Positions 38,081 to 59,457 of a stretch of DNA of 64,000 nucleotides are shown here, piece after piece; within the stretch, counting starts at the first letter, position 1, and every line of letters begins with the position of its first letter. The notes below the pieces were generated by a model, which saw only the letters and a list, made by a program, of their open reading frames with translations, made no database searches and had not been told where the DNA came from. A program made the translations under genes and the position numbers. Location of the stretch: the IMG/VR virus record IMGVR_UViG_2541047596_000003, one strand, 5' to 3'. The stretch comes from a virus (lineage: Duplodnaviria > Heunggongvirae > Uroviricota > Caudoviricetes).

Positions 38081-38096
38081 TGTGATCTGCGTCACG
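38081..38096. promoter_or_regulatory. CRP-like site TGTGATCTGCGTCACG
   Basis: TGTGA-N6-TCACg centred ~63 bp upstream of the predicted start of the adjacent moron promoter. Confidence 0.35.
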
Positions 38097-38116
38097 CTAA
38101 ATCATACCAAAATGGA

Positions 38117-38145
38117 TTGATCGCGGTTTTTACAATATGTATATT
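38117..38145 (+). promoter_or_regulatory. candidate sigma70 promoter of moron cassette 1
   Basis: TTGATC-17 bp-TATATT, preceded by CAAAATGG at 38108-38115. Confidence 0.4.
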
Positions 38146-38191
38146 TTACTCAAACGGAAGCATAGTTAACAAAATGGCGCGGAGGTGCGTT

Positions 38192-38380
38192 ATGACTGAA
38201 AAGCTATGGAAGTTGACGGTATTCATGACAGACGGTAGGGAAAAGGTTATCGCCCTGTATGACGACGAGGGTGAAGCATTGGTTGACGCGCTTTTACTTG
38301 CTGAGGATGACCGCCTTTTGGGATACCAGATCGAACCTGTCAAATATGAGGCTAACAAAAATGAAAAAATACAGTCTTGA
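38192..38380 (+). CDS. hypothetical small protein (moron cassette 1, paralogue a)
   Basis: 62 aa MTEKLWKLTVFMTDGREKVIALYDDEGEALVDALLLAEDDRLLGYQIEPVKYEAN... with SD GGAGG. Confidence 0.4.
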   Translation: MTEKLWKLTVFMTDGREKVIALYDDEGEALVDALLLAEDDRLLGYQIEPVKYEANKNEKIQS

Positions 38381-38708
38381 TGTGTGGTTAAGTGGTAGCA
38401 AGGAGTGTTTCGGATTATTTGATAGCGAAGAAGTAGCCCTGGAAGAAGGCAGGATTCTTGAATGTAGTTTAGGCCATCCAGTGAAATATGCTGCTAATCC
38501 GGTACAGATAGTTGATGAGGTGGAAGATATGAACCCGAAAGATATTAATGGTAGCTTCACTGCTTATTATGCAGATTCTATGGACCAGTCTTGCCCTGGT
38601 GAAATACACGCAAAAGGTTTCCCGGCTGACGATCCAGAAGCAAAACGCGAATACGAAAAAGCGGCGAAAGATTTCTGTATCGATAACCTTTCAGCATTCG
38701 ATAAATAA
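38361..38708 (+). CDS. hypothetical protein (moron cassette 1, paralogue b)
   Basis: 115 aa; N-terminal 45 aa share the L.V....G...L.D.E..AL.....LG....KY.AN pattern with the upstream ORF. Confidence 0.4.
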   Translation: MKKYSLDVWLSGSKECFGLFDSEEVALEEGRILECSLGHPVKYAANPVQIVDEVEDMNPKDINGSFTAYYADSMDQSCPGEIHAKGFPADDPEAKREYEKAAKDFCIDNLSAFDK

Positions 38709-38717
38709 GGCGGCAAC

Positions 38718-38966
38718 ATGGGGCGGCGCAATCACGGTGATTATGTGTACACGTTGAAACAGGCCGCCCGCCTCATCGGTTATCATGAACACGAATTTAT
38801 TGATTTGCTGATTGAGCGCGGGATACTGTACCAGGTCTGTTTAACGCTGTACCCGAAAGCGAAATACCTACATGAAAAGTTATTCATCATCATGACGGAT
38901 GAAAACCAGGTTAACCATTCATTCGTCACTGATAAGGGCGTTAATTATCTGCGTGATAACTTATAG
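38718..38966 (+). CDS. hypothetical small protein with possible HTH (moron cassette 1)
   Basis: 82 aa; YTLKQAARLIGYHEHEFIDLLIERGIL is helix-turn-helix-like. Confidence 0.4.
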   Translation: MGRRNHGDYVYTLKQAARLIGYHEHEFIDLLIERGILYQVCLTLYPKAKYLHEKLFIIMTDENQVNHSFVTDKGVNYLRDNL

Positions 38967-39091
38967 GTGACTGATTATAAAAATAGAAGTTTTGGCGCTA
39001 ATAATAATGGGGTTGATAGTATTTGGCGTTCATGCTGTAGATCTGGACTGGAAAACGATAGCAGAAAATATAGCATTAATGGAAATAGAAT

Positions 39092-39125
39092 AAAAATAAC
39101 CCCGCTTCGCGCGGGGTCGTGTTTA
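39092..39125. terminator. bidirectional rho-independent terminator
   Basis: CCCCGC-TTCGC-GCGGGG between the + moron cassette and the minus 65-aa ORF; U-rich flank on the minus transcript. Confidence 0.55.
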
Positions 39126-39320
39126 TACGCCATCAACCAAAAATAAAACCTCCTTCCCTTCCCGGGATCTACACCCAACGTACCCATCACCAACGTCGTG
39201 AAGATACCATATATCGCCGTTGTCAGCTTTTACAGTAAGGTCGTTGATCTCATAGTCGTCAAACAATGTAAAAGCGTAAGTTTTGTCAACTACACAAGTC
39301 CCGTACATAACAACCCCCAT
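39123..39320 (-). CDS. hypothetical small protein downstream of M
   Basis: 65 aa, start coupled to the M stop. Confidence 0.4.
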   Translation of the reverse strand: MGVVMYGTCVVDKTYAFTLFDDYEINDLTVKADNGDIWYLHDVGDGYVGCRSREGKEVLFLVDGV

Positions 39321-39673
39321 TAGCCAACAACTTGCTCAAACGTTGCGTTTAGCGTGTACAAAGGCCCGTCTTTAGTCATGCTCCATTGCCGACAGACAAA
39401 AAGCCTTTGCACGTTATCCATTGACGGCGACCAGTAAAAAGCCTCGACCGCGCCGCGCGCCCTCAAGAATGCTTCCGCCTGGATTGCTACGTTTCCACCA
39501 TCACCACATCCGGCGCTACTGCCTTTAAACACCAGGGTGTAGCTATCAAGCAATGGATTGATACCTTTTACCTGTCTTTGCTCATAACCATCGCCCAGCT
39601 TAACAACAGATACGTCTGGCTTCCTGGTCACGCTGTAGCTTCTTTGCGGCGTCCATCTGAACACTTCCGGCAT
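39320..39673 (-). CDS. minor tail protein M
   Basis: 117 aa; ...KLGDGYEQR... and C-terminal FEQVV as in recalled lambda M. Confidence 0.8.
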   Translation of the reverse strand: MPEVFRWTPQRSYSVTRKPDVSVVKLGDGYEQRQVKGINPLLDSYTLVFKGSSAGCGDGGNVAIQAEAFLRARGAVEAFYWSPSMDNVQRLFVCRQWSMTKDGPLYTLNATFEQVVG

Positions 39674-39732
39674 AAAACCCCCACAAGTTACATTTTGTAT
39701 ATATCTTTACGCGCTTCTACGCGAAAAATAAG

Positions 39733-39749
39733 ATCATTGTCACAATGAT
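39733..39749. promoter_or_regulatory. 17-bp perfect palindrome (operator-like)
   Basis: ATCATTGT-C-ACAATGAT upstream of the moron cassette 2 promoter. Confidence 0.3.
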
Positions 39750-39771
39750 TATAGCTAGTTTACAAAATGGC

Positions 39772-39800
39772 TTCACATAGCACGCAACAAGATGTATATA
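39772..39800 (+). promoter_or_regulatory. candidate sigma70 promoter of moron cassette 2
   Basis: TTCACA-17 bp-TATATA preceded by CAAAATGG at 39763-39770. Confidence 0.4.
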
Positions 39801-39840
39801 GAAAGCAAGAAGAAAGTAGTACCAACGAAGGAGGCCCAAA

Positions 39841-39996
39841 ATGAAACGCTATGTAGTAGTAATGCTAAATAACGCATTCGAACAAGTGGAAATAGCAATC
39901 GTTAAGGGTTTCGACGACGCATTCAAATACGGTCAATTCATGATGAATGCGAAAGAAGATGAATACCGGGACTTCTTCCTGAAGGCACTTAACTAA
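39841..39996 (+). CDS. hypothetical small protein (51 aa, moron cassette 2)
   Basis: MKRYVVVMLNNAFEQVEIAIVKGFDDAFKYGQFMMNAKEDEYRDFFLKALN with strong SD GAAGGAGG. Confidence 0.4.
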   Translation: MKRYVVVMLNNAFEQVEIAIVKGFDDAFKYGQFMMNAKEDEYRDFFLKALN

Positions 39997-40013
39997 GGAT
40001 GATGGGGTGAGTT

Positions 40014-40268
40014 ATGAAACTGGTAGCGATTGACAGAAATCTGAAAGCACAGAAAAACGCACAGGACCGGATCATCAAGAAAGGTAAGGAATTACTTAAA
40101 GCCTTTCTGAGAAAAGAAGTTTACCCCAAAAAGTTACGCGACGGTTACGGATACAAAATGGATATCAATCTTGATTGGAGGCTGTTTAGCGAAGATTTGA
40201 AGGTTTGGTTAATTGTTGAGCACCATGCCTATAACAAGTTATGTGGCGTGAAAGGCACTCATAAGTGA
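40014..40268 (+). CDS. hypothetical basic protein (84 aa, moron cassette 2)
   Basis: ORF-track ORF with SD GGGGTGAG. Confidence 0.45.
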   Translation: MKLVAIDRNLKAQKNAQDRIIKKGKELLKAFLRKEVYPKKLRDGYGYKMDINLDWRLFSEDLKVWLIVEHHAYNKLCGVKGTHK

Positions 40269-40321
40269 GTCGAGATATTCGAAAGGGGATATATCGCGCG
40301 GAATGGTCGTTTATAAATACG

Positions 40322-40360
40322 AAAAATAACCCCGGCATTGCACCGGGGTTTAGTTTATTT
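40322..40360. terminator. bidirectional rho-independent terminator
   Basis: CCCCGG-CATTGCA-CCGGGG with T-rich tail; overlaps the tape-measure stop. Confidence 0.5.
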
Positions 40361-42697
40361 GCGGCGAGGTTGCAACATTCCGCCTGGTCTTTGAGATTCC
40401 CTTGTTATCATTTTCATGGCTACACGTTCCATTGTTAATTCAAGTCTGCGGCTGTCTTCGTCGCTGAATCCGTTCGTGGTCTGAATGCTGATACTGACAG
40501 GCATACTAATACCGCCACCGCCGCCAATATCACGGCCCGGAATAACTCTGCCGTTCTCGCCAGGGATCATATATTGATTGCCGTTAGATGTCTGGAATAG
40601 CTCCGGCCTGTTGTGTTCCCCTACGCGGTACATATTACCACCAATGACGCTACCACCATTAAAGCGACCGCCGCCGAAAATTGACGTAGCCAGCGACATG
40701 ATCGCAGTGAGCGCCGCCGAACCAGCCGCCGCCCAGCTACCGCCAGTTGACGCCGCAGTTGCCGCCGCTGCTGGGGCCGCCGCCGCAGCAATGCTTCCCT
40801 GAGCTGCTACCGCGCTTGCTGTTGTACTTGTTTGCGTGGCCTTGCTTTGTGTCTCCATCATGATCTGATCTGCTATCCAGTTTGCAGCTATGTCTGAGAG
40901 TCTGTTACCGATATTGCCGAGTATATTGCTTCCTAAGTTAGCAAAAACATCACTCAATGATTGAGTGCCGTTTAACAGGCCAACAAGTGCATTGCTCATA
41001 CCACCTTTAAGGCCATTAACGCAATCACCGATAAGGCTGTTTGTGTCGCTTTGCGCCTGCCATTGCTCCCACTTCAGATCGCGGATCTGTTGCTCATAGG
41101 CTAACAGTTCCTGTTTCTGTTGCGCTTCCGTCACGCCCAGGTCGATAAGCATTTGCTTACGGACGGCCCATTCATTTTGAACCTGCTGAATAGGGTCTAC
41201 TTCGCCCTTTAGCTGATCCATCGGGCTTACTATTTGCTCCCATTTGTCGCGCAATTCCTCTACCGGAATTTGTGCTAATTCTTCCTTTAGTTCCTTACCT
41301 ATCCCTTTTTGCGCGGCGCGGTACTCAAGGAGAGTGATTTTACCCTGGGCGAATGCAGCATCAATGGCCTTGCCGCTCTCTAACGCTTTGCGCATAGCGG
41401 CGGCGTCTTTGTTGTACTGGTCAGAAACGCTTATACCTTTATCGCCAAGACGATCAGCTTCAGATTTCTTCTCTTTTTTCTGTTTTTTCGGTTTGTCTAC
41501 TGGCTTGTCGAATCCGGTAATCGCTCCGTCATTGGCGGCATTCTGTTCATTTTTCCTTGCTTCTTCTGTAGCCTGGATTGCTGCGGTCAGATCATCCTGT
41601 AGTTGCATGACCTTGCCAACGGTCTTACCGTATTTCTTCTCGTAGTTGCTGTTATATTCGTCGGTTTGCTCTCCTACGACCTCCTTCATCCATTTGTAGG
41701 CATCCATTAGTGCCTTGATTGGCGTCACCATTGCGATGATCTTCTCGGCTACCTCGCCAGCCTTGATTCTGACATCTTCAAACATGTCGATGAATTCGCC
41801 ACCAGCCGTCTTCAGGGTGTTAAAGCAGGTTTTAGCGAAATCAGCGCCTTCACCTAAAGCCTTAACACCTTTCGTTACAAGATCGATACCAGCAACAACC
41901 GTATCGGATACACCGAAAAGATCATCCAATTGCTCAATAAGTCCCATAACCTCGACTTTAAGCTCATTCAGGGCCATGCCGGATGTGCGCGGCAACTGCG
42001 CAAACTTCTCGTTTGTTTCCTGCGTAGCCGCCTGGATTGCGTTAACCATCCTTTCTGCCGTGATCTTACCGTCCAGCATTTCGGCGCGGAATTGGCCCAT
42101 TGATAACCCCATCTGGCGTGCCATTGTCTGTACGATGGTCGGGGTGTTTTCTAACAGGCTGTTGAATTCTTCAGCACGCAACACGCCACCGTCGATAGAC
42201 TGACGGAATTGACGCATTGAGTTTGACATCTGCTCCGCTGACGCGCCGCCCAACGCCCCCATTTTCTGAATCGTACCTACCAGGTTAAGCAATTGCCCTT
42301 CAGTGGCGGACGTGTTCTTCAGTGAGATAGCTAAGCCTTGCCACAGATCCCCGGTATCCTTCATGCTTTGGCCTGTTTCTTTTGATATTGCTTTCAGGCC
42401 ATCAAAAACCCGTCCGGCGGACTCCGCATCGCCCGTAAGCATTTTGATTTTTACGCGAAGCATTTTTGCTTGCTCCGCCATATCCATAAATTGACGCACG
42501 GCCTCCGCAGCAATTAGCAAATGGATAACCCTGGTCAGTGCCTTGATGGATGTTTTCAGGGTGTTTACCTGGCGGTCAGCCTGTTTTGCGCCGCGCTCTA
42601 TACGCCCAAAGGCCTGGTCTGCCTGTCGTTGTGCAACGAGAAGTTGACCAGTTTTCGCATCAACTTCGTAATAAATTGTACCTACACTGGTAGCCAT
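40355..42697 (-). CDS. tail length tape measure protein
   Basis: 780 aa, long helical protein with Ala/Gly-rich C-terminus, upstream of M. Confidence 0.85.
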   Translation of the reverse strand: MATSVGTIYYEVDAKTGQLLVAQRQADQAFGRIERGAKQADRQVNTLKTSIKALTRVIHLLIAAEAVRQFMDMAEQAKMLRVKIKMLTGDAESAGRVFDGLKAISKETGQSMKDTGDLWQGLAISLKNTSATEGQLLNLVGTIQKMGALGGASAEQMSNSMRQFRQSIDGGVLRAEEFNSLLENTPTIVQTMARQMGLSMGQFRAEMLDGKITAERMVNAIQAATQETNEKFAQLPRTSGMALNELKVEVMGLIEQLDDLFGVSDTVVAGIDLVTKGVKALGEGADFAKTCFNTLKTAGGEFIDMFEDVRIKAGEVAEKIIAMVTPIKALMDAYKWMKEVVGEQTDEYNSNYEKKYGKTVGKVMQLQDDLTAAIQATEEARKNEQNAANDGAITGFDKPVDKPKKQKKEKKSEADRLGDKGISVSDQYNKDAAAMRKALESGKAIDAAFAQGKITLLEYRAAQKGIGKELKEELAQIPVEELRDKWEQIVSPMDQLKGEVDPIQQVQNEWAVRKQMLIDLGVTEAQQKQELLAYEQQIRDLKWEQWQAQSDTNSLIGDCVNGLKGGMSNALVGLLNGTQSLSDVFANLGSNILGNIGNRLSDIAANWIADQIMMETQSKATQTSTTASAVAAQGSIAAAAAPAAAATAASTGGSWAAAGSAALTAIMSLATSIFGGGRFNGGSVIGGNMYRVGEHNRPELFQTSNGNQYMIPGENGRVIPGRDIGGGGGISMPVSISIQTTNGFSDEDSRRLELTMERVAMKMITRESQRPGGMLQPRRK

Positions 42698-42717
42698 GAT
42701 TTAACCTCATGCAAAAA

Positions 42718-42733
42718 TGTGATCTGTGTATCT
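42718..42733. promoter_or_regulatory. CRP-like half-site element TGTGATCTGTG
   Basis: Same 11-mer as at 30730; centred ~60 bp upstream of the predicted start of the cassette 3 promoter. Confidence 0.3.
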
Positions 42734-42750
42734 ATTTTATACAAAATGGC

Positions 42751-42779
42751 TTTACTTCAACGACTCCATTTTGTATAAA
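42751..42779 (+). promoter_or_regulatory. candidate sigma70 promoter of moron cassette 3
   Basis: TTTACT-17 bp-TATAAA; CAAAATGG at 42742-42749 and inverted copy at 42766-42773. Confidence 0.4.
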
Positions 42780-42824
42780 GAAGCCAAAGGGAATGGTCAG
42801 TAAATCAAGTTAGCGTGGTGGGTT

Positions 42825-43484
42825 ATGAAACGGTTAGCAAAAGTGGCAATGATTGCGGCGGTATTGGGTCTGGTTGGTTGCAATGAGGATAATGAAAAAG
42901 CGCCTATAGTGACCACTCAAGAACAACAAGCATTAGCAGAGAAAAATGCTAAATGGCTTGCAGAACAACAAGCAAAACAAGCCGCATATGAGGCACAGTT
43001 AGCAAAAGAAAAAGCTGGTAAACAGTGGCTTGTGGTCGAAAGAAAAGATGATATGCAGGACACAAAAAACGTGTTCCTTTTCGTGAAAGCAGAACATTTC
43101 AGCGGAAGTCTTGATGCTTTCCCTACACTGAAAGCACGGGATGAAAACAAACCTGTATTAACAATCGCTTGCCAGGGTAATAAAACAAAAATGTTCGTAG
43201 CATGGTCAAACCATGTAACTGACGCTGGGGACACTACTTATATTAACTACCGGATCGGCGATCACAAAGCTGTAGCTACTGAATGGAGTCGGTCAACTAA
43301 CTATAAAGCTCTTGGATTATGGAACGGCAAAAAAGCCATTCCAATGATTAAAAAACTGGTTAACGAAAAACAATTTATCATTGAAGTAGTGCCGGAAGCT
43401 GGCGACATTGAGAAAGCAGTGTTTAACATTGATGGTCTTTATAACCACATCGACAAAGTGAAAAACGCTTGCAACTGGAATTAA
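42825..43484 (+). CDS. lipoprotein (moron cassette 3)
   Basis: 219 aa; signal peptide MKRLAKVAMIAAVLGLVGC with lipobox; coiled-coil-like N-terminal region. Confidence 0.6.
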   Translation: MKRLAKVAMIAAVLGLVGCNEDNEKAPIVTTQEQQALAEKNAKWLAEQQAKQAAYEAQLAKEKAGKQWLVVERKDDMQDTKNVFLFVKAEHFSGSLDAFPTLKARDENKPVLTIACQGNKTKMFVAWSNHVTDAGDTTYINYRIGDHKAVATEWSRSTNYKALGLWNGKKAIPMIKKLVNEKQFIIEVVPEAGDIEKAVFNIDGLYNHIDKVKNACNWN

Positions 43485-43493
43485 GGGTGAAAC

Positions 43494-43814
43494 ATGAAAC
43501 GCGATGAATGGATGAGAAAATGGGAACATAAACAAGTAGCATATAATCGCAAGATGAACCGCGAATTTGACTTCGGTGTCGCAGAGCGTGATTGTGGGTA
43601 TAAAGGAAATCTAAATGGTGCATATGTTCAACATGTTGGCGATAAACAGTATTATTACATTGTCAACTTCAACCATGTATTGCACGCAGATCTGGTTGTT
43701 ATTGATGGGAAAACAAAAATAGTAGCGAATAAACGCATTAATAAGAACGCAGCAATCAATATATTAACAGTGATTCGCACCCAGATGAATGTGCTTTACG
43801 AAAAAATAGCATAA
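43494..43814 (+). CDS. hypothetical protein (moron cassette 3)
   Basis: 106 aa with SD AAGGGTGA, 10 bp after the lipoprotein gene. Confidence 0.5.
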   Translation: MKRDEWMRKWEHKQVAYNRKMNREFDFGVAERDCGYKGNLNGAYVQHVGDKQYYYIVNFNHVLHADLVVIDGKTKIVANKRINKNAAINILTVIRTQMNVLYEKIA

Positions 43815-43831
43815 GCGAACTTAACAAAAAC

Positions 43832-43855
43832 GCCCGGATCTACCGGGCTTTTTCT
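43832..43855. terminator. rho-independent terminator of moron cassette 3
   Basis: GCCCGG-ATCTAC-CCGGGC followed by TTTTT. Confidence 0.6.
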
Positions 43856-44526: not shown

Positions 44527-44572
44527 CTTAAAAGAAAAGGGGCCAAATGGCCCCGATTGTTAATATTGGCTG

Positions 44573-45049: not shown

Positions 45050-45062
45050 GTTAATTTACCTC

Positions 45063-49684: not shown

Positions 49685-50616
49685 TCTTCGCCATATTTAG
49701 CGTGCGCAACTTTATAGTTTTCTTGCGCCCGATCTAATATTCGTTCGTTTAATATGTTACCGTCTTCGTCAACTAATACGGTAATCGTGCTACATTTGCA
49801 GTTAATTGAATTAGGGGATCTACTCCACCATTCGCGCTGCTCATCTATGGTGTATGTTTTACCGTGCCGCTGCGCGTGCGATAGCCTGGTAGTCGGTGAT
49901 AATGCCGAAATGTGCATTTGCATAGTGCGCAGATTAAATTCTTCTGTCGCCGCTTCTGCCTCATCCATACGCGCTGTGCGTAACGCTGTGCATATTTCAG
50001 TTCGAGCAATACGTTTACACCTGTATAGCGGTAATTGCGTCTCCTGATTCAATGTGCGCGCTATTTCCAGTGGGTTTAAACCACGGGCCATGCCTTCAGT
50101 TAATCGCCGGGCCATATCCTTTTTGATCTGTGCGGTCAGCCCGCGCATTTCCTCAAATACACGGGTACGGACCAGAGCAAGGCGTGTTCGGTAAGTTGTA
50201 CTGGATAACACGGCAGATACATCAGGGTAGGCGCTTGAGTACGTGACAGACTGGTTAGCAAGGTTGGCATGTTCCTGTGCCGTGCCGCGCTGATAGGCCA
50301 CCTTCACGTAATTCTGCCAGAACCAGAAGTTTTCCGGGTCTGTTAGCTCGAATATCTCATCAATCATGTCGCTGGCATCCTCCAGCATGTCGTGAAATTC
50401 ATCCATGTAAATCTGAAAGGTGTATTTCTTATTAACAGCCAGGCTATATTGTATCCTGTCCAATATGGCGATATATGGATCGGCTACTTTTTTCAGGCAG
50501 GATTTGAAACGCTTAATAGCGCCAGACCTCAACCTCCCTGTCATGGTCGGGTCTTCGGTGTTAGATGGCATTATCGCGGCTGGAGGTATTCGCCTGATTA
50601 TTTTCTTCACCTTCAT
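49675..50616 (-). CDS. head morphogenesis protein (minor head protein, Mu F / SPP1 gp7-like)
   Basis: 313 aa downstream of the portal gene. Confidence 0.55.
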   Translation of the reverse strand: MKVKKIIRRIPPAAIMPSNTEDPTMTGRLRSGAIKRFKSCLKKVADPYIAILDRIQYSLAVNKKYTFQIYMDEFHDMLEDASDMIDEIFELTDPENFWFWQNYVKVAYQRGTAQEHANLANQSVTYSSAYPDVSAVLSSTTYRTRLALVRTRVFEEMRGLTAQIKKDMARRLTEGMARGLNPLEIARTLNQETQLPLYRCKRIARTEICTALRTARMDEAEAATEEFNLRTMQMHISALSPTTRLSHAQRHGKTYTIDEQREWWSRSPNSINCKCSTITVLVDEDGNILNERILDRAQENYKVAHAKYGEDWE

Positions 50617-51955
50617 TGTCGTTTTCCTCGTCGTCCAGTTCTACTTCCTGCGTTGGCCCTTCATACCCGGCAGCCTCGCGGATCTCGTCACCGTCGAATA
50701 CTTGTTCACCTGTGGCGAGACATGCCTGATTGATTTGCGCCATTTTGTATGCCGCGTCGAGTAGCTCGGCTTTCGTCATGGCGTTAAGGTCGTCCCACAG
50801 TACCGACACGTCGACTGGCATACTGATAAGGCGGAGATCTGCCATCTTGCGGAATAGTTCCTCAAGCTCGCCTCCTATTTCCTCCCGGCGGGTCATACAG
50901 CGGTTATTGAAGTAGCGGAGGTCTTCGGTTGATGCACGCTCACCCTGCTGATTCCCAACCAGGATACGCGTTGGAATGTCGATACCAGCGGCGGCGGTTT
51001 GCAGGTTGACGTCATAGGTAGCTGATGGATCCGCCACGGCAGTAACCAGCGGGCTAACGGTTGCTCCCTGTAATGCCATCATCACATCATTACCTTTATT
51101 TATATCCTCTGCCGCTTCATTGAATTTTTCGCGTAGCTCTGCAACGTCGCAACCGTATGTTGCAGCCAGGGAACGAAAATCAATCTCTTTGTCGAATGAG
51201 ATAGCCAGTTGACGCGCTGCGTTTTTCAGAAAGGATTCACCGCTACCGCCTTCCACTTTCTCCAGCGATACAAAAGCGTTATAGGACGGCTCAAGGAAAG
51301 CGATGGCATCATCAGAATAATCACCGAAGATAAATATGCGATCTGGATGTATCTTTCTTGCTATGGTCTTACTGTTAATGCGCTCCTTGTATTCCCACCA
51401 TGTCGGCAGGCCATAGCTTTCACTTTCCGGATCTTCTTCGAAGTCCTTCGGTGTAAGAGCACCAGCCCATACAGGGGTAAATTTGGCAATGCCTACACCT
51501 TTCGTCACTGGCTGATCCCACGGCTGGTTATCCCTGACGTGAATTAACAGGCCAGCATAACGACCAATGAGGCGGCGGCGATCGCATTCAGCTATGACGC
51601 GCCAGAAACGATTATCAAATCGTTTTTTGATTTCTCTTTCCCACGGCGTTTCCTTTTTTGCTTTCTCGTCTTCCGTACCTTCGATCAGCGTTGGCCTGGT
51701 GCGCCAGCACGTAGTGATGATCTTCTCAATAGCACCGTGAGCGATACCACCGCGACGATACAGTTTGTATAAATCGGCATAGGTGATTTCTTCTTTGAAT
51801 CCGTATTCACTCCACGCAGCATCACGTTTTGCATCAATACCCATTGAGAATGGGTTAGCGGCTGCATAGCGGGCAAAGGCCGCCTGTCGTTGTGACAAGG
51901 CAGCATTAACCGCCAGTTCTACATTAGATGGCATAATGTTTACTCCTGAATACAT
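50561..51955 (-). CDS. portal protein
   Basis: 464 aa downstream of the large terminase, acidic C-terminal tail. Confidence 0.75.
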   Translation of the reverse strand: MYSGVNIMPSNVELAVNAALSQRQAAFARYAAANPFSMGIDAKRDAAWSEYGFKEEITYADLYKLYRRGGIAHGAIEKIITTCWRTRPTLIEGTEDEKAKKETPWEREIKKRFDNRFWRVIAECDRRRLIGRYAGLLIHVRDNQPWDQPVTKGVGIAKFTPVWAGALTPKDFEEDPESESYGLPTWWEYKERINSKTIARKIHPDRIFIFGDYSDDAIAFLEPSYNAFVSLEKVEGGSGESFLKNAARQLAISFDKEIDFRSLAATYGCDVAELREKFNEAAEDINKGNDVMMALQGATVSPLVTAVADPSATYDVNLQTAAAGIDIPTRILVGNQQGERASTEDLRYFNNRCMTRREEIGGELEELFRKMADLRLISMPVDVSVLWDDLNAMTKAELLDAAYKMAQINQACLATGEQVFDGDEIREAAGYEGPTQEVELDDEENDNEGEENNQANTSSRDNAI

Positions 51956-52082
51956 GTTTACGCGTTGCTACGCGAAAAATAGAAAAACTTGCGGGGGATT
52001 GTGGGACAGATTTTATGTAGCCAATTGAGAATTATTCTTGTTCATCTTCGAAAATTTTTCGAAGTTGATAATAATCAATAAC

Positions 52083-53597: not shown

Positions 53598-54087
53598 GAG
53601 TATTGTACTCCTTATTCAGGTTATCGATTATCTCAAGGACAGTAGTCTGATTTACTTCTACCTGGACGGGTGCTTCTTCCTTGTTACCGACGATCTCCTG
53701 TGTGACGCGTTCGCCGTATTTGCGCGGCTGGAGTTTTGCCAGTAGCCACTTGCGTGTCTCAATCATCAGTTGATGGCGGCGCAATTGGTCCTTATCTGCG
53801 TTCTCTGCGGCATCAGCCAGATCGATGATTTCATCAGCCAACACCTCGAAGCCGATCTCCTTCGCGCGTACATACATGTCCGAAAATTCAGGCACATCAC
53901 GAAACCATTTCAGGATTGTTGAACGGGTAGGCATACCAGGCATTTTTGATATTTTGTTAATACTCTGACCGTCCGCTACCAGTTCGCAGATCTCTAACGC
54001 TTTCTCTTCGGTATAACCATGCGGACGGCCCACCTTTTTAGCGGCTGGCTTTTTGTCGTCAGCTTTTGCATTTTTAGTGCGGGCCAT
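53572..54087 (-). CDS. terminase small subunit
   Basis: 171 aa with N-terminal HTH-like region, immediately upstream of the large subunit. Confidence 0.65.
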   Translation of the reverse strand: MARTKNAKADDKKPAAKKVGRPHGYTEEKALEICELVADGQSINKISKMPGMPTRSTILKWFRDVPEFSDMYVRAKEIGFEVLADEIIDLADAAENADKDQLRRHQLMIETRKWLLAKLQPRKYGERVTQEIVGNKEEAPVQVEVNQTTVLEIIDNLNKEYNTHGDCDDKD

Positions 54088-54252
54088 AATTCACCTCTCA
54101 ATATTTATTGATGATATATACGCAAGCAACAAAACTTGCACAGTATGTTAATACTTCCAACCAATCGAATAGCTCCTTCATTGTTTGCCCTTTATGTGAA
54201 GAAAACGATAACGACTAATAACGTGCATATAGCCATGATTAAGAAATCGCCG

Positions 54253-54327
54253 TCAGACATTAATAATAAGCCCCACAATAACAACCGCAGCGATACATAC
54301 GAATAATACGGCTTCGATAGCTTCCAT
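54253..54327 (-). CDS. micro-ORF 7, 24-aa hydrophobic peptide MEAIEAVLFVCIAAVVIVGLIINV
   Basis: ATG 54327, SD AGGTGA, TGA at 54253-54255; single predicted TM. Confidence 0.3.
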   Translation of the reverse strand: MEAIEAVLFVCIAAVVIVGLIINV

Positions 54328-54335
54328 ATATTCAC

Positions 54336-54404
54336 CTATTGAGTCAGCGCGGTCATGGTAAGAACAATCGCAACGATCAGGAAAAAGAAATCAAGCCATT
54401 TCAT
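54336..54404 (-). CDS. micro-ORF 6, 22-aa hydrophobic peptide MKWLDFFFLIVAIVLTMTALTQ
   Basis: ATG 54404 overlaps the upstream stop as ATGA. Confidence 0.3.
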   Translation of the reverse strand: MKWLDFFFLIVAIVLTMTALTQ

Positions 54405-54481
54405 TTTTTAAACTCCCGATAAACATCTACGGCAATGACTACAACTACAGCCACCAGCAATAGCATTTCGTATGCGTTCAT
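54401..54481 (-). CDS. micro-ORF 5, 26-aa hydrophobic peptide MNAYEMLLLVAVVVVIAVDVYREFKK
   Basis: ATG 54481 with SD GAAGGT. Confidence 0.3.
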   Translation of the reverse strand: MNAYEMLLLVAVVVVIAVDVYREFKK

Positions 54482-54492
54482 TGTGGATACCT

Positions 54493-54567
54493 TCAGCTTT
54501 CAATGAATATCATGATCGCCAGCCATACAGCGACGCAGGCAGAAAGGATAATTAGCGGGTCAATCAT
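54493..54567 (-). CDS. micro-ORF 4, 24-aa hydrophobic peptide MIDPLIILSACVAVWLAIMIFIES
   Basis: ATG 54567 with SD GGGGTGA. Confidence 0.3.
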   Translation of the reverse strand: MIDPLIILSACVAVWLAIMIFIES

Positions 54568-54572
54568 ATTTT

Positions 54573-54683
54573 TCACCCCACCAAATACTTGATATATACG
54601 TTTATCAGCGCAACTATAATAGAACCAGCAAGAAACACAGAAACGCCGATTAATCCGGCAATGATGTAAGCGTCCATAATCAT
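54573..54683 (-). CDS. micro-ORF 3, 36-aa hydrophobic peptide MIMDAYIIAGLIGVSVFLAGSIIVALINVYIKYLVG
   Basis: ATG 54683 with SD GGAAG; shares MDAY(I/L) start with micro-ORF 2; translation checked codon by codon. Confidence 0.35.
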   Translation of the reverse strand: MIMDAYIIAGLIGVSVFLAGSIIVALINVYIKYLVG

Positions 54684-54745
54684 TACTTCCACAACAAAAA
54701 CAATATTACAGCCGCCGCCATTCCGATAAATAAATAAGCGTCCAT
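54683..54745 (-). CDS. micro-ORF 2, 20-aa hydrophobic peptide MDAYLFIGMAAAVILFLLWK
   Basis: ATG 54745; stop overlaps the next start. Confidence 0.3.
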   Translation of the reverse strand: MDAYLFIGMAAAVILFLLWK

Positions 54746-54747
54746 AA

Positions 54748-54837
54748 TCAGTCTCGCATAGACATAACTACCAGAAACAGGCAAAGGATGAATCCAGCCG
54801 CCATCCCGCCGACGAAAGTTAGTATTGACGCAATCAT
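54748..54837 (-). CDS. micro-ORF 1, 29-aa hydrophobic peptide MIASILTFVGGMAAGFILCLFLVVMSMRD
   Basis: ATG 54837 with SD GAGG, 5 nt after the HExxH gene stop; translation checked codon by codon. Confidence 0.35.
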   Translation of the reverse strand: MIASILTFVGGMAAGFILCLFLVVMSMRD

Positions 54838-54839
54838 AA

Positions 54840-55382
54840 TCAGCCTCGTTTAAAACTCATAACACGCGGTACAAGCGCTTCTTTTGCTTTCGGCTTACGT
54901 TTACCTTTCTTCGCTGGCTTTTCTTCTTCCTTCGGCTGTTCTGCCTGTTCCAGCGCCTGATCGACGACTTCTGCCGCCTGCATTGCTGCAACCTGTGCTT
55001 CGTTTGATTCTGCTAGGATAGGGAAAAACGCATCGAAGATACGGCCTACCATGTAAGCGTAAGTCTCATTCGCCGGATGGGTAGGATCCGTGGTAGCCAC
55101 GACGCCTACATCACTTAAAACGTGGAATGTAGTGTGGGCGCATTCATGGACCAGCGTTCCCAACTCATTGTTGAATACTGCGATCACGTAGAAGTTACCA
55201 CCATTCTCGCCAGTGCAAGTAAGCGTTAATCCTCCAGCCAACTCGAAATCAGGTTCAATCGGAATTCCTGCCTTTTCGCAAAATTCATAGAACATCTCGC
55301 GGGTCGGGCAAAAGAAAACGGTTGTATGCTCAAAGAGTGGGATCTTAAATTGAGGCAATTTAATGCCTTTAGCCTTAGCCAT
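54840..55382 (-). CDS. HExxH-motif protein, putative zinc metallopeptidase
   Basis: 180 aa with SD AGGAGA; LVHECAHTTFH motif; Lys-rich C-terminal tail. Confidence 0.5.
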   Translation of the reverse strand: MAKAKGIKLPQFKIPLFEHTTVFFCPTREMFYEFCEKAGIPIEPDFELAGGLTLTCTGENGGNFYVIAVFNNELGTLVHECAHTTFHVLSDVGVVATTDPTHPANETYAYMVGRIFDAFFPILAESNEAQVAAMQAAEVVDQALEQAEQPKEEEKPAKKGKRKPKAKEALVPRVMSFKRG

Positions 55383-55661
55383 CAGAATAATCTCCTATTC
55401 TGAAAAATATAACCCCCGCAAAACTCGACACCGCAGGGAGTGAAAACAGTTATAAAACACTGAAAACGGCGCTTCATCAGTACCGTTTCCAGAATTTTAT
55501 AAAATTGGTGAATGGCGCTTTCTTCTACCCAGGTAGCGCCTGACCTGTTAATGGGACTGTTGATCCGGTATTACGTGTTTTTGACTATTCCGCCGTCGCT
55601 CGCGGGAAGGATTGGCCCGGTTATGGCTGGCTGACAGAAACGGCGACACGTCCACGCGCTG

Positions 55662-56150
55662 CTATTCTTTGCGTAAACACTGAGTTTTGATGTAGTCCTG
55701 TAGGCCAGTGATCTGTGCGTCTTTCTCTTTTAGTTGTTCTCTGAGGGATAGATAAGATTGTCTAGCAGTGGCATCAAGCTCGCAGGTGGCTCCATCAATG
55801 CGGCTGGCGGTCGCGGCGGGGTCGGACACTCGCACGGGTATTGCGTTGACGCGCAACCGGATAGTACCGTTATCAATGCCAGTGCGCAGATCGGCAATGT
55901 CAGATCTGATAGCTTTAATCTCATCGTGATACCTCTTATCAAGTTTTGACAGTTCGGCGTTTCGCTCCTTCATCTGCTGAATAGTGTTACTTGCCGTTTT
56001 CAGTGCGCCTTTCGTTACCGTGACTTCTTCCTGTAACCTTGCCGCCTCACCCTGGTAATAACATGTTACGGCGGTCAGTCCGGCAATAATGCAAACAACA
56101 GCGGCGAAAATTAACGCCTTCACCTTGTCCACGTTTCCCCCCATTCGCAA
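55662..56150 (-). CDS. Rz-like i-spanin
   Basis: 162 aa, N-terminal TM plus coiled coil, contains embedded lipoprotein ORF. Confidence 0.75.
55730..55924 (-). CDS. Rz1-like o-spanin lipoprotein (embedded)
   Basis: ATG 55924; [24 protein letters not shown] lipobox then proline-rich body; ORF track start 55942. Confidence 0.6.
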   Translation of the reverse strand: MRLKLSDLTLPICALALITVLSGCASTQYPCECPTPPRPPAALMEPPASLMPLLDNLIYPSENN

Positions 56151-56611
56151 ACGGCATATTCAACCTCGCGGCGGTTTACCAGGCCTTGCCACTTCTTACC
56201 GCCAGCGTATACCCAGCGTTTAAGCTGTGCGCACGCTTCTGATTTCTTGCCGTCATTGAGTAGTTTTAGTAAGGTTGATGTTTTGAAGTTGGTAGCGCCT
56301 ACGTTATAGGCGAATGAATAAAGTGCTGCGCGGGTAAAATCTGATATTTCGACTTTGATATATGGGTCAATCGCTTTTGCGGTCTTGTGTAGATCTTTAT
56401 TTAACAAAGCATCGCATTCTGATTGCGTGTAAGTCTTACCAAGCATGATGTCTTTTCCGACGTGTCCATAACATATCGTGTAAACACCGATGACATCTCT
56501 GTATGGCTTATACTCAACGCCTTCAAGATCTTTTATCATCACCGCCGCAATAGCGATCGCCCCACCAGCCGCCGCCGCAACAATCTTGTTTTTCAGCGAT
56601 TGGCTAATCAT
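56120..56611 (-). CDS. phage lysozyme / endolysin
   Basis: 163 aa paralogous to the Rac-type endolysin at 4445-4942. Confidence 0.85.
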
Positions 56612-56812
56612 TTACTTATTCCCCATTCGCGCGTCGTGTTCCTCTTGCGCCCGCTTGTTCTCCTGTGATTTGAAGTAATAATTAACGGCAAATGTGCCTA
56701 CGGTTGATAAGATACCAACGAAAACAGCGATGTCATTGATGGTTATCGCGCCGAAAAAAGCAGTTACGGCCCCAGTCACATACGCACACGCCTCCCGTAT
56801 TCTGTCGAACAT
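56612..56812 (-). CDS. holin
   Basis: 66 aa with two hydrophobic helices and charged C-terminus, directly upstream of the endolysin, SD GGAGG. Confidence 0.7.
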   Translation of the reverse strand: MFDRIREACAYVTGAVTAFFGAITINDIAVFVGILSTVGTFAVNYYFKSQENKRAQEEHDARMGNK

Positions 56813-56830
56813 AGATTTTCCTCCAACAAA

Positions 56831-56855
56831 GCAAAAACCCGGCGCGGGGCCGGGT
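56831..56855 (-). terminator. rho-independent terminator just upstream of the holin
   Basis: CCCGGC-GCGGG-GCCGGG followed on the minus transcript by UUUUUGCUUU. Confidence 0.5.
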
Positions 56856-56919
56856 AATTACAATTTCGCATTGTTAGGAAATATTTTAATCTGTTTGTTT
56901 GCGCTCTACAAATACGGCG

Positions 56920-57147
56920 TTAACGATAAGGTCCAAGCAAACGAACAAGCCATTCTTTGTATTTGACGGCAACGTGTTTTGGTGCAAAATATCCTTGCAC
57001 TTCCTTACCGCCTCGCCACTCCCTTCTAAATTCGCACTCGTTTTGATACTCCTTTCCGCTTTTACTATCCAGCCAGCAAGCAGGTGAGTAACCTTTTTCA
57101 CTTCCGAACCGATGCCATATTGATGACAGCAAAACCCTTTCTTCCAT
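56920..57147 (-). CDS. hypothetical small protein upstream of the lysis cassette
   Basis: 75 aa ORF at the position where an antiterminator would be expected; no recognisable Q features. Confidence 0.3.
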   Translation of the reverse strand: MEERVLLSSIWHRFGSEKGYSPACWLDSKSGKEYQNECEFRREWRGGKEVQGYFAPKHVAVKYKEWLVRLLGPYR

Positions 57148-57342
57148 ATTACCCCCAACAAATACGGCTTTACTGCTTTCTGTATATCAGGCCATTATCA
57201 AGCAATGTTTGCATGTGTTCGCGATCCATGCCGCTTGATTCCCAATGTGGATCGTCATCAGGTCTTATCATCACCTTATTACCTTTAAGTAAATAGACGA
57301 TGTTAAATACCTTATGCAAATAGATGCCGTCTTCGATCTCGT

Positions 57343-57525
57343 TCACAGGTCGCTAACCTTCACCACGTCGCCGTTATAAAGCATGATTTCAATTATTTCC
57401 CGCGTCATATCCATGAATGGCTCTTTCCACTCGCCACCATCGATACTGATACGAATATCATTACCCTCCACGCGGTAAAACATTTCATCAATGAGGTTCA
57501 CGGCGTATATACCATCTTCAATCAT
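57343..57525 (-). CDS. hypothetical early-region protein
   Basis: 60 aa, coupled array. Confidence 0.4.
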   Translation of the reverse strand: MIEDGIYAVNLIDEMFYRVEGNDIRISIDGGEWKEPFMDMTREIIEIMLYNGDVVKVSDL

Positions 57526-57750
57526 TTAATCGCCCTCTTTAAACATCCTGAACTTAATATCGCCAATCTTGCTCCAATGTCCGTGATTAAACATCGTGAT
57601 AACTTCTTTCGCTGTCACAGGTAAAACCGTTTCATGCCACGGTTCAAACTGGCGTGATCGCATCATTACGTGTTCACCTTCAAGGCGATAATAAGCGCGT
57701 GACACCAATGACTGATAAACGCCGTCATATTGATGGTCGCTATTTCCCAT
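57526..57750 (-). CDS. hypothetical early-region protein
   Basis: 74 aa, coupled array. Confidence 0.4.
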   Translation of the reverse strand: MGNSDHQYDGVYQSLVSRAYYRLEGEHVMMRSRQFEPWHETVLPVTAKEVITMFNHGHWSKIGDIKFRMFKEGD

Positions 57751-57940
57751 TTTTACGCTCCTTAATGGCTCGCTTAATCTGCACTAGCGTTGCATCGAAG
57801 AAAGCGATAAACACCGCTACAGGCCAGAAAGGAATCTCAAGGCCACCACGATCGAGATCGTTATATTTGATGAAACAAGACATCAGGATAGCGCCAGCGA
57901 TATAAAGGAGAAATACAGCAAAGATAAGACATTCAATCAT
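57740..57940 (-). CDS. small membrane protein (two TM helices)
   Basis: 66 aa, MIECLIFAVFLLYIAGAILMSCF... and PFWPVAVFIAFF... Confidence 0.4.
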   Translation of the reverse strand: MIECLIFAVFLLYIAGAILMSCFIKYNDLDRGGLEIPFWPVAVFIAFFDATLVQIKRAIKERKNGK

Positions 57941-58075
57941 CCTCTTTCTCCCCGCCTAAATGTTGATATATTTTTTCAGCATTTTCCCCGCGCTCAAAAC
58001 AATAATGCTCAAACATGCGCCAGTGTTCACTAAGAAACATAACAATAAACTTGTTTACGTATTCGTCATCCATCG

Positions 58076-58387
58076 TTAATCATCCTCTTCATCGTCTTCT
58101 TGTTCAGCTAGGAAATCATCGACAGAACAGTAAGTAACTGGCGGGATATATTCGAAGTCATCCGTATCAAGATCGAGCGTCCTGCTGTCGCCGTCGTCGT
58201 CAATCGTATTCATTCCTAACTCACCGAAAGGGCCGTACCCAATGTGGCCCAGGTATTCGCAACCAATCGTAAACCCAGGGTATTCGCCTTTACACCGGAT
58301 TTTGTAAGGTTTATTTGATGCGCTCAATTTCCGACCCTCCACTTTCTGCTTCAGTGATTTTGTATTCTGCCGCCAGTTCAGCGCCAA
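58076..58387 (-). CDS. acidic small protein (start uncertain)
   Basis: C-terminal ~45 aa are ~45% Asp/Glu; track start overlaps upstream gene by 77 nt, internal ATG at 58213 possible. Confidence 0.4.
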   Translation of the reverse strand: MALNWRQNTKSLKQKVEGRKLSASNKPYKIRCKGEYPGFTIGCEYLGHIGYGPFGELGMNTIDDDGDSRTLDLDTDDFEYIPPVTYCSVDDFLAEQEDDEEDD

Positions 58388-58634
58388 GCAATTCCACTTC
58401 CATATTAGCGATACCCTGGAACATCAGATAGGCAAAAACTAGGCTTTTAATTCTATCCGGGTCTTCAAGATGGTCTGCATTAAAAGGCGGTTCCGATACG
58501 TGGAAGCATTTAACATGCGCATCGTCTTCAGTGGCTACACGGAAACATGCGCCAGGTTGCCCGGCGAATTCCCCCAATCTTTCTTCGTTCGGTAAAGTAC
58601 CACGGAAAACTTTAACGCTGATAAATTTAGTCAT
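58311..58634 (-). CDS. hypothetical early-region protein
   Basis: 107 aa ORF. Confidence 0.45.
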   Translation of the reverse strand: MTKFISVKVFRGTLPNEERLGEFAGQPGACFRVATEDDAHVKCFHVSEPPFNADHLEDPDRIKSLVFAYLMFQGIANMEVELLGAELAAEYKITEAESGGSEIERIK

Positions 58635-58637
58635 TGT

Positions 58638-58892
58638 TTATTCTCCTTCGTAAAGAGTTGCCACCAGTTCGGCATCTGTTAGCGTGTTATAATCTGTATA
58701 AAACCCGCAACGCATAAGTGAAGAAAGGCCAGCCACTTTGCACCACATAGGGGTCGATTCGCTCAAATATTCATTCTCCCTTTTTTCGCTGTATTCCAGT
58801 TCATAAAACCGACTATTGTTAACACTCTCAATTACACGGCTGTATGTGCCATCAAGCCTACTAACTCCGCGCCATAGTCTGATCACAACCAT
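58638..58892 (-). CDS. hypothetical early-region protein
   Basis: 84 aa ORF. Confidence 0.4.
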   Translation of the reverse strand: MVVIRLWRGVSRLDGTYSRVIESVNNSRFYELEYSEKRENEYLSESTPMWCKVAGLSSLMRCGFYTDYNTLTDAELVATLYEGE

Positions 58893-58931
58893 AATTTCTA
58901 CTCCGTTTGATGGGGCTATTCGGCCCCGTGT

Positions 58932-59072
58932 TTATTCTTCTTCTCCTCCTCTAAATCCTAAGCACTCCGCGTATTCGTCAATGCTTAATGCTTCTTCACC
59001 TGGTGCCAATACTTCAAAGTAGCGGGCGTATAGTTCGAAAACCCAGGCCGGATATTTAGCGTTAGCGTTCAT
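58932..59072 (-). CDS. hypothetical small protein (46 aa)
   Basis: Hand-translated MNANAKYPAWVFELYARYFEVLAPGEEALSIDEYAECLGFRGGEEE with SD AAGGGGG; below track cutoff. Confidence 0.3.
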   Translation of the reverse strand: MNANAKYPAWVFELYARYFEVLAPGEEALSIDEYAECLGFRGGEEE

Positions 59073-59081
59073 GGTTCCCCC

Positions 59082-59360
59082 TTATGCCATGCGTGCAAAT
59101 TCAAGTGATTTGCATTCGTAGTCTTCCTCTGCCTGTTCGATGACTGCCATCATCATTTCGTTTGCGTTGTTGAATGCGTTGCTTTGTGCGAACTTGTCGG
59201 CTCCACCTTCTTCTTCGAACTCCGCGTTGTTTGCTGCAATGTAGTGATATTCGATGTTGTTCAGGTAAGGGCTTGCAGCGTGTGCTGGGTCTTCTTTCTC
59301 CACCATCTCCCAAAATGCGTTTAAGCGAGATTCGACTTCTTTGTTAATCCAGCGTTTCAT
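59082..59360 (-). CDS. hypothetical early-region protein
   Basis: 92 aa ORF. Confidence 0.45.
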   Translation of the reverse strand: MKRWINKEVESRLNAFWEMVEKEDPAHAASPYLNNIEYHYIAANNAEFEEEGGADKFAQSNAFNNANEMMMAVIEQAEEDYECKSLEFARMA

Positions 59361-59441
59361 TTTTCTACCCTCCGCATCGTTCTCTCTTCAGCTTCTTTAT
59401 AACAAAATGGCACTTCCGAAACAATGCCATTTCGTAAACCT

Positions 59442-59457
59442 TGTGATACAGATCACA
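59442..59457. promoter_or_regulatory. perfect CRP-type palindrome TGTGATACAGATCACA
   Basis: TGTGA-N6-TCACA in the 98-bp gap between early genes; adjacent AAATGGCA/TGCCATTT inverted repeat at 59404-59433. Confidence 0.4.

Follow-up and report, generated by a model that had tools for sequence, protein, structure and literature searches.

The prophage region of IMG/VR virus record IMGVR_UViG_2541047596_000003 raises the question of why the sequence TGTGATCT recurs between its genes. For the window, that is, the whole 64,000-nucleotide stretch analysed here, a first-pass annotation had proposed either catabolite control through cyclic AMP (cAMP) and CRP or a phage-encoded regulator that recognizes a shared motif. 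Our analysis indicates that the recurring TGTGATCT elements are most probably CRP-type binding sites for host cAMP-CRP, and we assign a probability of about 0.6 to the proposal that such sites act at the promoters predicted beside them. In silico, the CRP-site part of the earlier proposal is borne out by matrix rank, half-site conservation and distances to predicted -10 elements, with CRP control itself remaining a prediction. The second motif, the word CAAAATGG, is better explained as part of promoter context than as the site of a dedicated regulator.

The match of the window to the chromosome of Escherichia coli M1/5 is 99.9%, and that to phage mEp021 and relatives is about 85-88%; by these matches it is E. 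coli chromosome with a prophage of the mEp021 group (mEpimmI), a temperate siphophage. The mEpimmI phages are Nus-dependent, non-lambdoid, temperate siphophages from human faeces; in E. coli from that source they reportedly equal lambdoid phages in frequency (PMC11893012). The prophage part of the window extends from 28611 to 64000 and includes 4.3 kb of intergenic DNA. Its late operon lies on the minus strand, and the tail genes are interrupted by four blocks of reverse-oriented accessory genes on the plus strand. Slot 1 precedes the tape-measure gene (start 42697, minus strand), slot 2 a minor tail gene (39673), slot 3 the minor tail L gene (start 38062, minus strand) and slot 4 the tail-fibre gene (start 30684, minus strand); mEp021 has reverse-oriented slots at the same four places. 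A fifth position, termed P1, is a predicted internal promoter in the sense direction that would serve small genes located between Q and the lysis genes.

Sequence and conservation of the CRP-like boxes

The core of CRP sites is the 16-bp sequence TGTGA-N6-TCACA, in which G4 and C13 are most conserved (PMC3105977). The only perfect copy in the window is at 59442-59457 (0.05 expected). The sequence TGTGATCTGYG is present, as the first-pass annotation had claimed, at 30730, 38081 and 42718 (0.07 copies expected), and the palindrome at 59442-59457 provides a fourth TGTGATCT as its minus-strand half. The annotation had rightly called this palindrome perfect but wrongly assigned it to the early region; it precedes P1, the internal promoter facing the small genes that are located between Q and the late promoter.

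Tests against shuffled sequence confirmed that the motifs are enriched, most strongly in intergenic DNA, although the counts are not independent events, with several copies being paralogous (P1 and slot 1 share CCATTTTG(T)TATAAAGAAGC). Cores with at most one mismatch are found in the window only at 30730, 38081 and 59442, and the three in intergenic prophage DNA compare with 0.08 expected (reached in 0 of 1000 shuffles). If up to two mismatches are permitted, the core is not enriched across the window (25 copies versus 29.8 expected). On both strands together, CAAAATGG has 13 copies in the window versus 4.71 +/- 2.16 in dinucleotide shuffles, with at least 13 reached in 0 of 100 shuffles. The prophage part contains 10 of these copies, and 7 are intergenic where 0.27 are expected (0 of 1000 shuffles). 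The earlier claim of enrichment therefore stands, whereas its figure of about one expected copy is too low for the whole sequence; the seven coordinates that it gave for CAAAATGG or its complement (30724, 38108, 38170, 39763, 42742, 42766 and 59403) are each correct.

A weight matrix built from 88 CRP sites of RegulonDB (Table S4 of PMC3105977) gives its top three matches in the 64-kb window at 30730 (17.1 bits), 38081 (14.9 bits) and 59442 (14.6 bits), which correspond to the 84th to 93rd percentile of the 88 known sites. The boxes at 42718 (12.0 bits) and 39729 (11.6 bits) exceed the known-site median of 11.1 bits. Matches of at least 12 bits number 12 in the window versus 4.45 in shuffled sequence, a count reached in 1 of 200 shuffles. 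Relative to the CRP core, the box at 59442 has no mismatch, those at 30730 and 38081 have one, that at 39729 has two, and that at 42718 retains one intact half-site. The boxes thus resemble CRP sites both in their core and in scores like those of genuine sites.

The slot 4 box, TGTGATCTGTGTTACA (30730-30745, plus strand), is the best match in the window (93rd percentile). It is located between the tail-fibre start and the plus-strand cassette gene at 30882-31127, and a copy of CCATTTTG at 30724-30731 overlaps its 5' end. Relatives keep TGYAAC(A/G)CAGATCACA at this position. It is followed by an FNR-type, or second CRP-type, box, TTGATCTATATCAA (30772-30785, plus strand), a perfect TTGAT-N4-ATCAA that scores 14.5 bits with the CRP matrix and is centred 41 bp 3' of the centre of the first box. 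In relatives the half-sites of this second box are kept and the N4 is variable, as in TTGATATAAATCAA. A second perfect FNR-type box is found apart from the slots, at 52065-52078, within the 148 bp that separate the terminase gene from the portal gene.

The slot 3 box, TGTGATCTGCGTCACG (38081-38096, plus strand), begins 19 bp past the L gene start. In about 30 distinct relatives it reads (C/A)GTGAY-NNNN-(G/T)ATCAC(A/G), with GTGA and TCAC fixed and the centre free; across 33 distinct relatives TGTGAT and TCAC do not change and only bases in the centre do. The same pattern of fixed half-sites and variable spacer is seen in slots 2 and 4. The motif is thus present at equivalent positions in related phages, with half-sites kept and spacer free. 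The slot 2 box, TAAGATCATTGTCACA (39729-39744, plus strand), is degenerate in this lineage; most relatives have TGAGATCTTCATCACA, and among relatives TCACA is kept and the spacer is variable. The slot 1 box, TGTGATCTGTGTATCT (42718-42733, plus strand), begins 21 bp past the tape-measure start and has a single good half-site, its TGTGAT being invariant in 33 relatives and its second half variable. The P1 box reads AAATGTGATCTGTATCACAAGG on the minus strand (59442-59457) and is one base apart from the azuC site of RegulonDB, TGTGATTTGTATCACA. Relatives of P1 keep the TGTGATCT half, and about half of them have lost the other. Methylation of GATC by Dam was considered as the conserved unit and rejected, because relatives have TATCACA, CATCACA or GATTACA and yet keep TCACA-type half-sites.

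Promoter modules and their geometry

Each box is part of a larger module. Read toward its gene, the module starts with the 16-bp box, of the form GTGA-N6-TCAC. Next come A/T-rich DNA at -50 to -37 that ends in (T)TTAYACAAAATGG, a weak -35 element, a spacer and an imperfect -10 element (TATAAA, TATATA, TATATT, TAAACT or TATACT). The spacer often ends in CCATTTTG, which supplies a T-tract and TG. Distances are counted from predicted rather than mapped starts, taken as 7 bp after the -10 hexamer, and the -10 assignments other than that of slot 3 rest on manual reading, conservation and the nut-site argument given below. When the best matrix match between -100 and -30 is taken in seven modules of two genomes, box centres lie at -59.5 (two modules), -60.5 (three modules), -62.5/-63.5 and -70.5; the lac site is listed at -61.5 in RegulonDB. 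CRP-activated promoters of classes I to III have their site centred near -41.5, -61.5, -71.5 or -82.5, and the boxes are thus predicted to occupy class I, II or III CRP activation distances from the predicted -10 elements.

The slot 3 cassette promoter (38108-38145, plus strand) comprises CAAAATGG at 38108-38115, a -35 TTGATC at 38117-38122, a 17-bp spacer and a -10 TATATT at 38140-38145. Its box is centred at -63.5 (-62.5 in mEp021) from a predicted start at 38152, and the promoter, which was flagged by our promoter scan and has -35 and -10 elements that are invariant among relatives, faces open reading frames at 38192-38966. The slot 2 promoter (39763-39800, plus strand) has CAAAATGG at 39763-39770, a -35 TTCACA at 39772-39777, a 17-bp spacer and a -10 TATATA at 39795-39800. 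It is conserved in 37 distinct relatives, has its box at -70.5 from a predicted start at 39807, and faces an open reading frame of 51 amino acids and a ParE-like gene (39841-40268; names from RefSeq). The slot 1 promoter (42742-42779, plus strand) has CAAAATGG at 42742-42749, a -35 TTTACT at 42751-42756, CCATTTTG at 42766-42773 and a -10 TATAAA at 42774-42779. Its box is centred at -60.5 from a predicted start at 42786, and it faces a VasI-like lipoprotein gene at 42825-43484 (Pfam match to VasI). The first-pass annotation was correct both in placing CAAAATGG against a -35-like hexamer in three cases (38108, 39763 and 42742) and in locating two box centres, those of 42718 and 38081, 60-64 bp upstream of predicted starts.

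In slot 4, the CRP-like box would be centred at -82.5 and the FNR-type box at -41.5 from a predicted start at 30820, if the poor hexamer GGTGAT at 30808-30813 is the -10 element. In mEp021, the slot 4 CRP-like box is at -40.5 of the predicted promoter of the exclusion lipoprotein gene Lpp021.

The P1 promoter (59396-59438, minus strand) comprises TTTACGAAATGGCA at 59438-59425, a -35 TTGTTT at 59424-59419, CCATTTTG at 59410-59403 and TG-T-TATAAA, with the -10 element at 59401-59396. The box is centred at -60.5 (gap 40) from a predicted start at 59389, and the promoter faces a 92-amino-acid gene at 59360-59082. The arms AAATGGCA/TGCCATTT form a 13-bp hairpin (-16.7 kcal/mol, z -4.0); in relatives, the arms and the -10 element are invariant and the -35 region is variable. 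At 59414 the window has A (CGGAAG on the minus strand), whereas E. coli M1/5 and most relatives have C (CGGCAG). The change costs the hairpin one pair, and it shows the source strain to be a near neighbour of M1/5 that is nevertheless distinct from it.

Another P1-type module is found in IMG/VR contig 2695420423_000006 (L121, about 345-450), with a different perfect box, TGTGACTCGTATCACA, the same arms, AAAATGGCA/TGCCATTTT, and another downstream gene. As an arrangement of sequence, this example shows that the P1-type module is portable. The N16 dyad of P1 and slot 1 was also considered as a mobile element of other phages, but a scan of IMG/VR returned 58 stretches, of which about half belong to this family and the rest are apparently unrelated chance matches.

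P1 was considered as a Q-dependent late promoter with a conserved initial transcribed region containing AACGAT. This possibility was rejected, because both the window and mEp021 have a separate late promoter and terminator, and mEp021 lacks P1. In the window this late unit lies 5' of the holin gene (56837-56911, minus strand) and consists of a promoter at 56911-56883 (TTGTAG-17-TAAAAT), a hairpin, CCCGGCCCCGCGCCGGG, and a T-run. The arrangement is nearly identical in mEp021, where the terminator is annotated, and in the window the terminator was flagged by our terminator scan. The phage encodes a lambda-type Q antiterminator (Pfam Antiterm), and the unit at 56911-56837 is probably the equivalent of a Q-dependent PR'-tR'. 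Because the late promoter sits there, upstream of holin, the palindrome at 59442 is not part of it.

Three further modules were found outside the window. Ma lies between early genes (box centre -59.5), Mb lies ahead of ninG and Q (box centre -59.5), and the third is at the early-left promoter (box centre -60.5). The early-left promoter, TTGATC-16-TAAACT, is followed by nutL, and its CRP-like box scores 16.9-18.0 bits (NZ_CP053296.1, L052 about 10690-11000; mEp021 10860-11220). This box is about 30 bp 5' of the repressor start codon, and it is possible that it provides a cAMP input to the lysis-lysogeny switch. In the Mb region (L052 about 2235-2325; mEp021 20080-20160), the CRP-like palindrome CGTGATGTGGATCACA is at the tip of a long hairpin (-29.8 kcal/mol, z -4.3) that is annotated in mEp021 as the terminator TERM_4. 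It is followed by a predicted promoter, TTGTTC-16-TATACT, and by a boxA-like sequence, the probable nutR2. Three nut sites are reportedly used, with which a third promoter-nut pair would agree. In all, boxA-like sequences are found directly 3' of three promoters carrying the shared words, and their positions are those at which nutL, nutR1 and nutR2 have been placed (PMC11893012). This agreement provides independent support for the -10 assignments.

Class I CRP promoters such as lac P1 are the closest comparison. They likewise have a TGTGA-N6-TCACA-type site centred 5' of the start by about 61 bp or, with one more helical turn, about 71 bp, A/T-rich DNA between site and -35 where the alpha C-terminal domain binds, and a weak core (TTTACA at lac, TTTACT at slot 1). 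In contrast to lac P1, the centres here range from -59.5 to -63.5 from predicted starts, several -10 elements end in A and not T, and the predicted design recurs, in either orientation, some eight times within one phage genome of 55 kb. Slot 4, with sites at -41.5 and -82.5, and Lpp021 of mEp021, with its site at -40.5, resemble class II and tandem class III CRP or FNR promoters such as galP1 and FNR-dependent promoters. Slot 4 differs from these in its poor -10 element, GGTGAT, and its proximal box may, to judge by sequence, be used by either FNR or CRP. The late promoters of P2 and 186, which are activated by Ogr or B through TGT-N12-ACA at about -55, also have a TGT...ACA dyad upstream of weak phage promoters and are repeated through the genome. 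Here, however, the spacing is TGT-N10-ACA with conserved GA and TC inside and the centre is at -60 to -71, and no Ogr-like activator is annotated in the prophage; an Ogr-type late promoter was accordingly rejected.

The proposed mechanism is that the phage family has re-used one CRP-type module ahead of its accessory cassettes, with the module facing outward from the tail operon toward plus-strand accessory genes at four slots and used once in the sense direction, at P1. At high cAMP, CRP bound at about -61 or -71 would recruit RNA polymerase, as it does at lac. At slot 4, CRP at -82 would act together with the proximal FNR- or CRP-type site at -41.5. Host carbon status would thereby tune the cassettes, together with the early-left promoter and the one that precedes nutR2, and oxygen would possibly tune slot 4 as well.

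The word CAAAATGG occupies one register in slots 3, 2 and 1 (38108, 39763 and 42742), from -44 to -37 and directly 5' of the -35 element. This interval is the proximal subsite of an UP element, and also the site of the alpha C-terminal domain at class I promoters. A strong early-right promoter, TTGACT-17-TATATT, has the same TATACAAAATGGA upstream and no box. The form CCATTTTG makes up the last eight spacer bases beside the -10 element at five promoters (P1, slot 1, Ma, Mb and early-left). In relatives, CAAAATGG drifts to CAAAATGT or CAAAACGG with no compensating change in the partner arm, and the slot 3 copy is CAAAACGG in about one-third of them. A second slot 3 copy (38170-38177, plus strand) is in the 5' untranslated region (UTR) of the cassette, just 5' of the ribosome-binding site GGAGG; the GTTAACAAAATGG in this 5' UTR is conserved even when the first cassette gene is different. 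The remaining copies are in 5' UTRs or coding sequence, those at 40154, 46845 and 50740 being within coding sequence.

Because of its UP-proximal or -10-adjacent position, its copies at a box-less promoter and in 5' UTRs, and its drift in relatives, CAAAATGG/CCATTTTG is most likely a promoter-context word that spread with the re-used module, and not a separate operator. As in the UP element of rrnB P1, whose proximal subsite spans about -46 to -38, its A-tract falls at -43 to -40 at the three cassette promoters and at early-right. It differs in that the match to the UP consensus, A/T-rich DNA at -59 to -38 with an A-tract near -42, is partial and the word also occurs inverted beside -10 elements and in 5' UTRs, and a role for alpha is at most predicted.

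Alternative explanations for the boxes

Several observations weigh against CRP-type activation. Slot 1 and about half of the P1 relatives keep just one half-site. Only the slot 3 promoter is flagged by a simple promoter scan of the window, which weakens the start assignments, and several predicted -10 elements (TATAAA and TATATA) lack the conserved T at -7, although weak core elements are expected at activator-dependent promoters. The modules are partly paralogous, so the agreement in spacing is not fully independent. The palindrome at Mb, and partly that at P1, lies in a strong hairpin, which the mEp021 annotators called a terminator at Mb. Finally, good -10-like sequences are found on the late strand 2-4 bp 5' of the boxes (TAAAAT at slot 1 and TATAAT at slot 2), and 37 distinct relatives share the sense TATAAT at 39753-39748 without change, despite variable flanks.

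These late-strand elements, together with TGgTATGAT at slot 3, raise the possibility that the boxes mainly repress or occlude sense-direction internal promoters of the tail genes downstream of each cassette, from a position at about +2 to +6. They would then serve as a direction switch, or as a silencer of those promoters in the lysogen, and not simply as activator sites for cassettes. The box centres would fall at +1.5 to +5.5 from putative minus-strand starts near 42727, 39741 and 38094, the sense -10-like elements at slots 1 and 4 are nearly invariant, and, with a strong late-strand terminator ending each cassette, re-initiation downstream could help. However, with Q antitermination from PR'-tR', late transcription should read through, and internal promoters are not required. 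The sense hexamer at slot 3 varies (TATGAT, CATGAT, CGCGAT or TGTGAT), no acceptable -35 element is found at 17 bp, and these A/T-rich bases would be present in any case, as the UP-like DNA that separates CRP from the cassette -35. We therefore regard occlusion as the main role of the boxes as unlikely. A related proposal combines the two directions in a switch conserved in the phage backbone: relative to a weak outward promoter, which serves whichever cargo is in the slot, the box would be at about -61, and relative to an opposite, consensus-like -10 element it would be at about +2 to +6, so that cAMP-CRP (FNR at slot 4) would toggle direction at four slots and act at the early-left promoter. 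Such a bidirectional switch is likewise doubtful.

A different binder is conceivable as well, namely a phage-encoded protein that recognizes the GTGA-N6-TCAC boxes, the (T)ACAAAATGG ... CCATTTTGT(A) dyad or both, and thereby co-ordinates the cassettes with the phage cycle; candidates are the MarR-like Cro analogue, an Lrp/AsnC-like protein or an unrecognized small protein. Fixed half-sites with a free spacer fit any dimeric helix-turn-helix protein, boxes and CAAAATGG words are always together in eight modules per genome, and one box, that of the early-left promoter, is in the immunity region. Also, the AAATGG-N16-CCATTT dyad that brackets the -35 element at P1 and slot 1 resembles a typical operator, its arms being invariant and its centre variable. 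Yet this dyad is confined to two paralogous modules, the change of CAAAATGG to CAAAATGT or CAAAACGG is uncompensated in the partner arm, and the word is also found where no box is present. The boxes match the host CRP matrix at the percentiles given above with flanking A/T preferences included, and no CRP/FNR-family protein is annotated in the prophage. The Rep021-like repressor itself is an unlikely binder, because the immunity region has only one box and different repeats, the candidate repressor operators being CTTG(C)-N4-6-(G)CAAG when read by eye. On balance, a phage-encoded binder appears improbable.

Least probable, in our judgement very unlikely, is that the palindromes and the CAAAATGG/CCATTTTG inverted repeats are hairpins that serve as terminators, insulators or processing sites, with an incidental likeness to CRP sites. 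The P1 hairpin is followed by U-rich sequence, the Mb hairpin coincides with TERM_4, and folding is predicted for the slot 1 dyad on either strand (z -5.8 and -3.75). However, the P1 hairpin was not flagged by the terminator scan, half of the relatives have lost its palindrome but retain the TGTGATCT half, and the arms lack compensatory changes. A hairpin needs no specific GTGA or TCAC, yet these bases are conserved in every module. Moreover, no RNA structure is predicted around the boxes of slots 1 and 4 (z +0.1 and +0.9), and a hairpin is therefore not the common explanation.

Accessory cassettes and neighbouring features

In slot 1, about 85 bp that include the promoter are conserved in 45 relatives (loci L004-L048) 5' of the tape-measure gene, and at least five unrelated types of sequence follow the same promoter (window 42780-42830). 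The predicted promoter therefore belongs to the slot, and not to the cargo. Bidirectional terminators at 39099-39117, 40328-40350 and 43832-43848 end three of the four cassettes and are strong on the late strand; none was detected for the slot 4 cassette. Like phage morons such as lambda bor and lom or those of HK97-type phages, the cassettes are accessory genes located between conserved late genes, with their own predicted promoter, a terminator in three of four cases and variable cargo. Unlike morons, they have a promoter that is conserved backbone and not cargo, and one design is common to four units. It is unusual for one promoter design to be used about eight times per phage genome and to be resident in the slot while the cargo varies, as these sequences suggest. 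A slot-resident promoter would explain how swapped-in cargo genes can still be expressed.

Searches of the cassette proteins against Pfam, PHROGs and PADLOC revealed only the VasI-like domain and families of unknown function, with no match to a defence system. Expression of Lpp021, which occupies slot 4 in mEp021, confers exclusion of superinfecting phage (PMC11893012), which is consistent with cassettes that act in the lysogen. If host CRP drives these promoters, with FNR at one slot, the expression of superinfection-exclusion lipoproteins, of a ParE-like toxin pair and of the remaining cargo would depend on the nutrients and oxygen available in the gut, and so possibly would the early-left promoter beside the repressor gene. 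If the boxes are a bidirectional switch, host carbon and oxygen status would feed both accessory expression and the lysis-lysogeny switch in a common phage family of the human gut. The genome paper on the mEpimmI group mentions neither CRP nor promoters of the cassette genes, and a literature search on CRP control of prophage morons returned nothing relevant. To our knowledge, nothing has been published on transcription of mEpimmI accessory cassettes. The prediction made here is specific in that it names sites, distances and starts.

Additional features were noted near slot 2 and elsewhere. A perfect palindrome, ATCATTGT-C-ACAATGAT (39733-39749), is lineage-specific and overlaps the degenerate slot 2 box. 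Because it is upstream of the 51-amino-acid open reading frame and the ParE-like toxin gene, it could be a toxin-antitoxin operator. A small stem-loop, CGCG-TAGAAG-CGCG (39707-39729), is found on the late strand between the slot 2 box and the minor tail gene, and in relatives its stem is kept and its loop varies. The gene at 50561-51955 (minus strand) has the RefSeq name 'anti-CBASS protein Acb1 family protein', whereas the collinear gene gp52 of mEp021 is annotated as portal protein, and the RefSeq name may be wrong.

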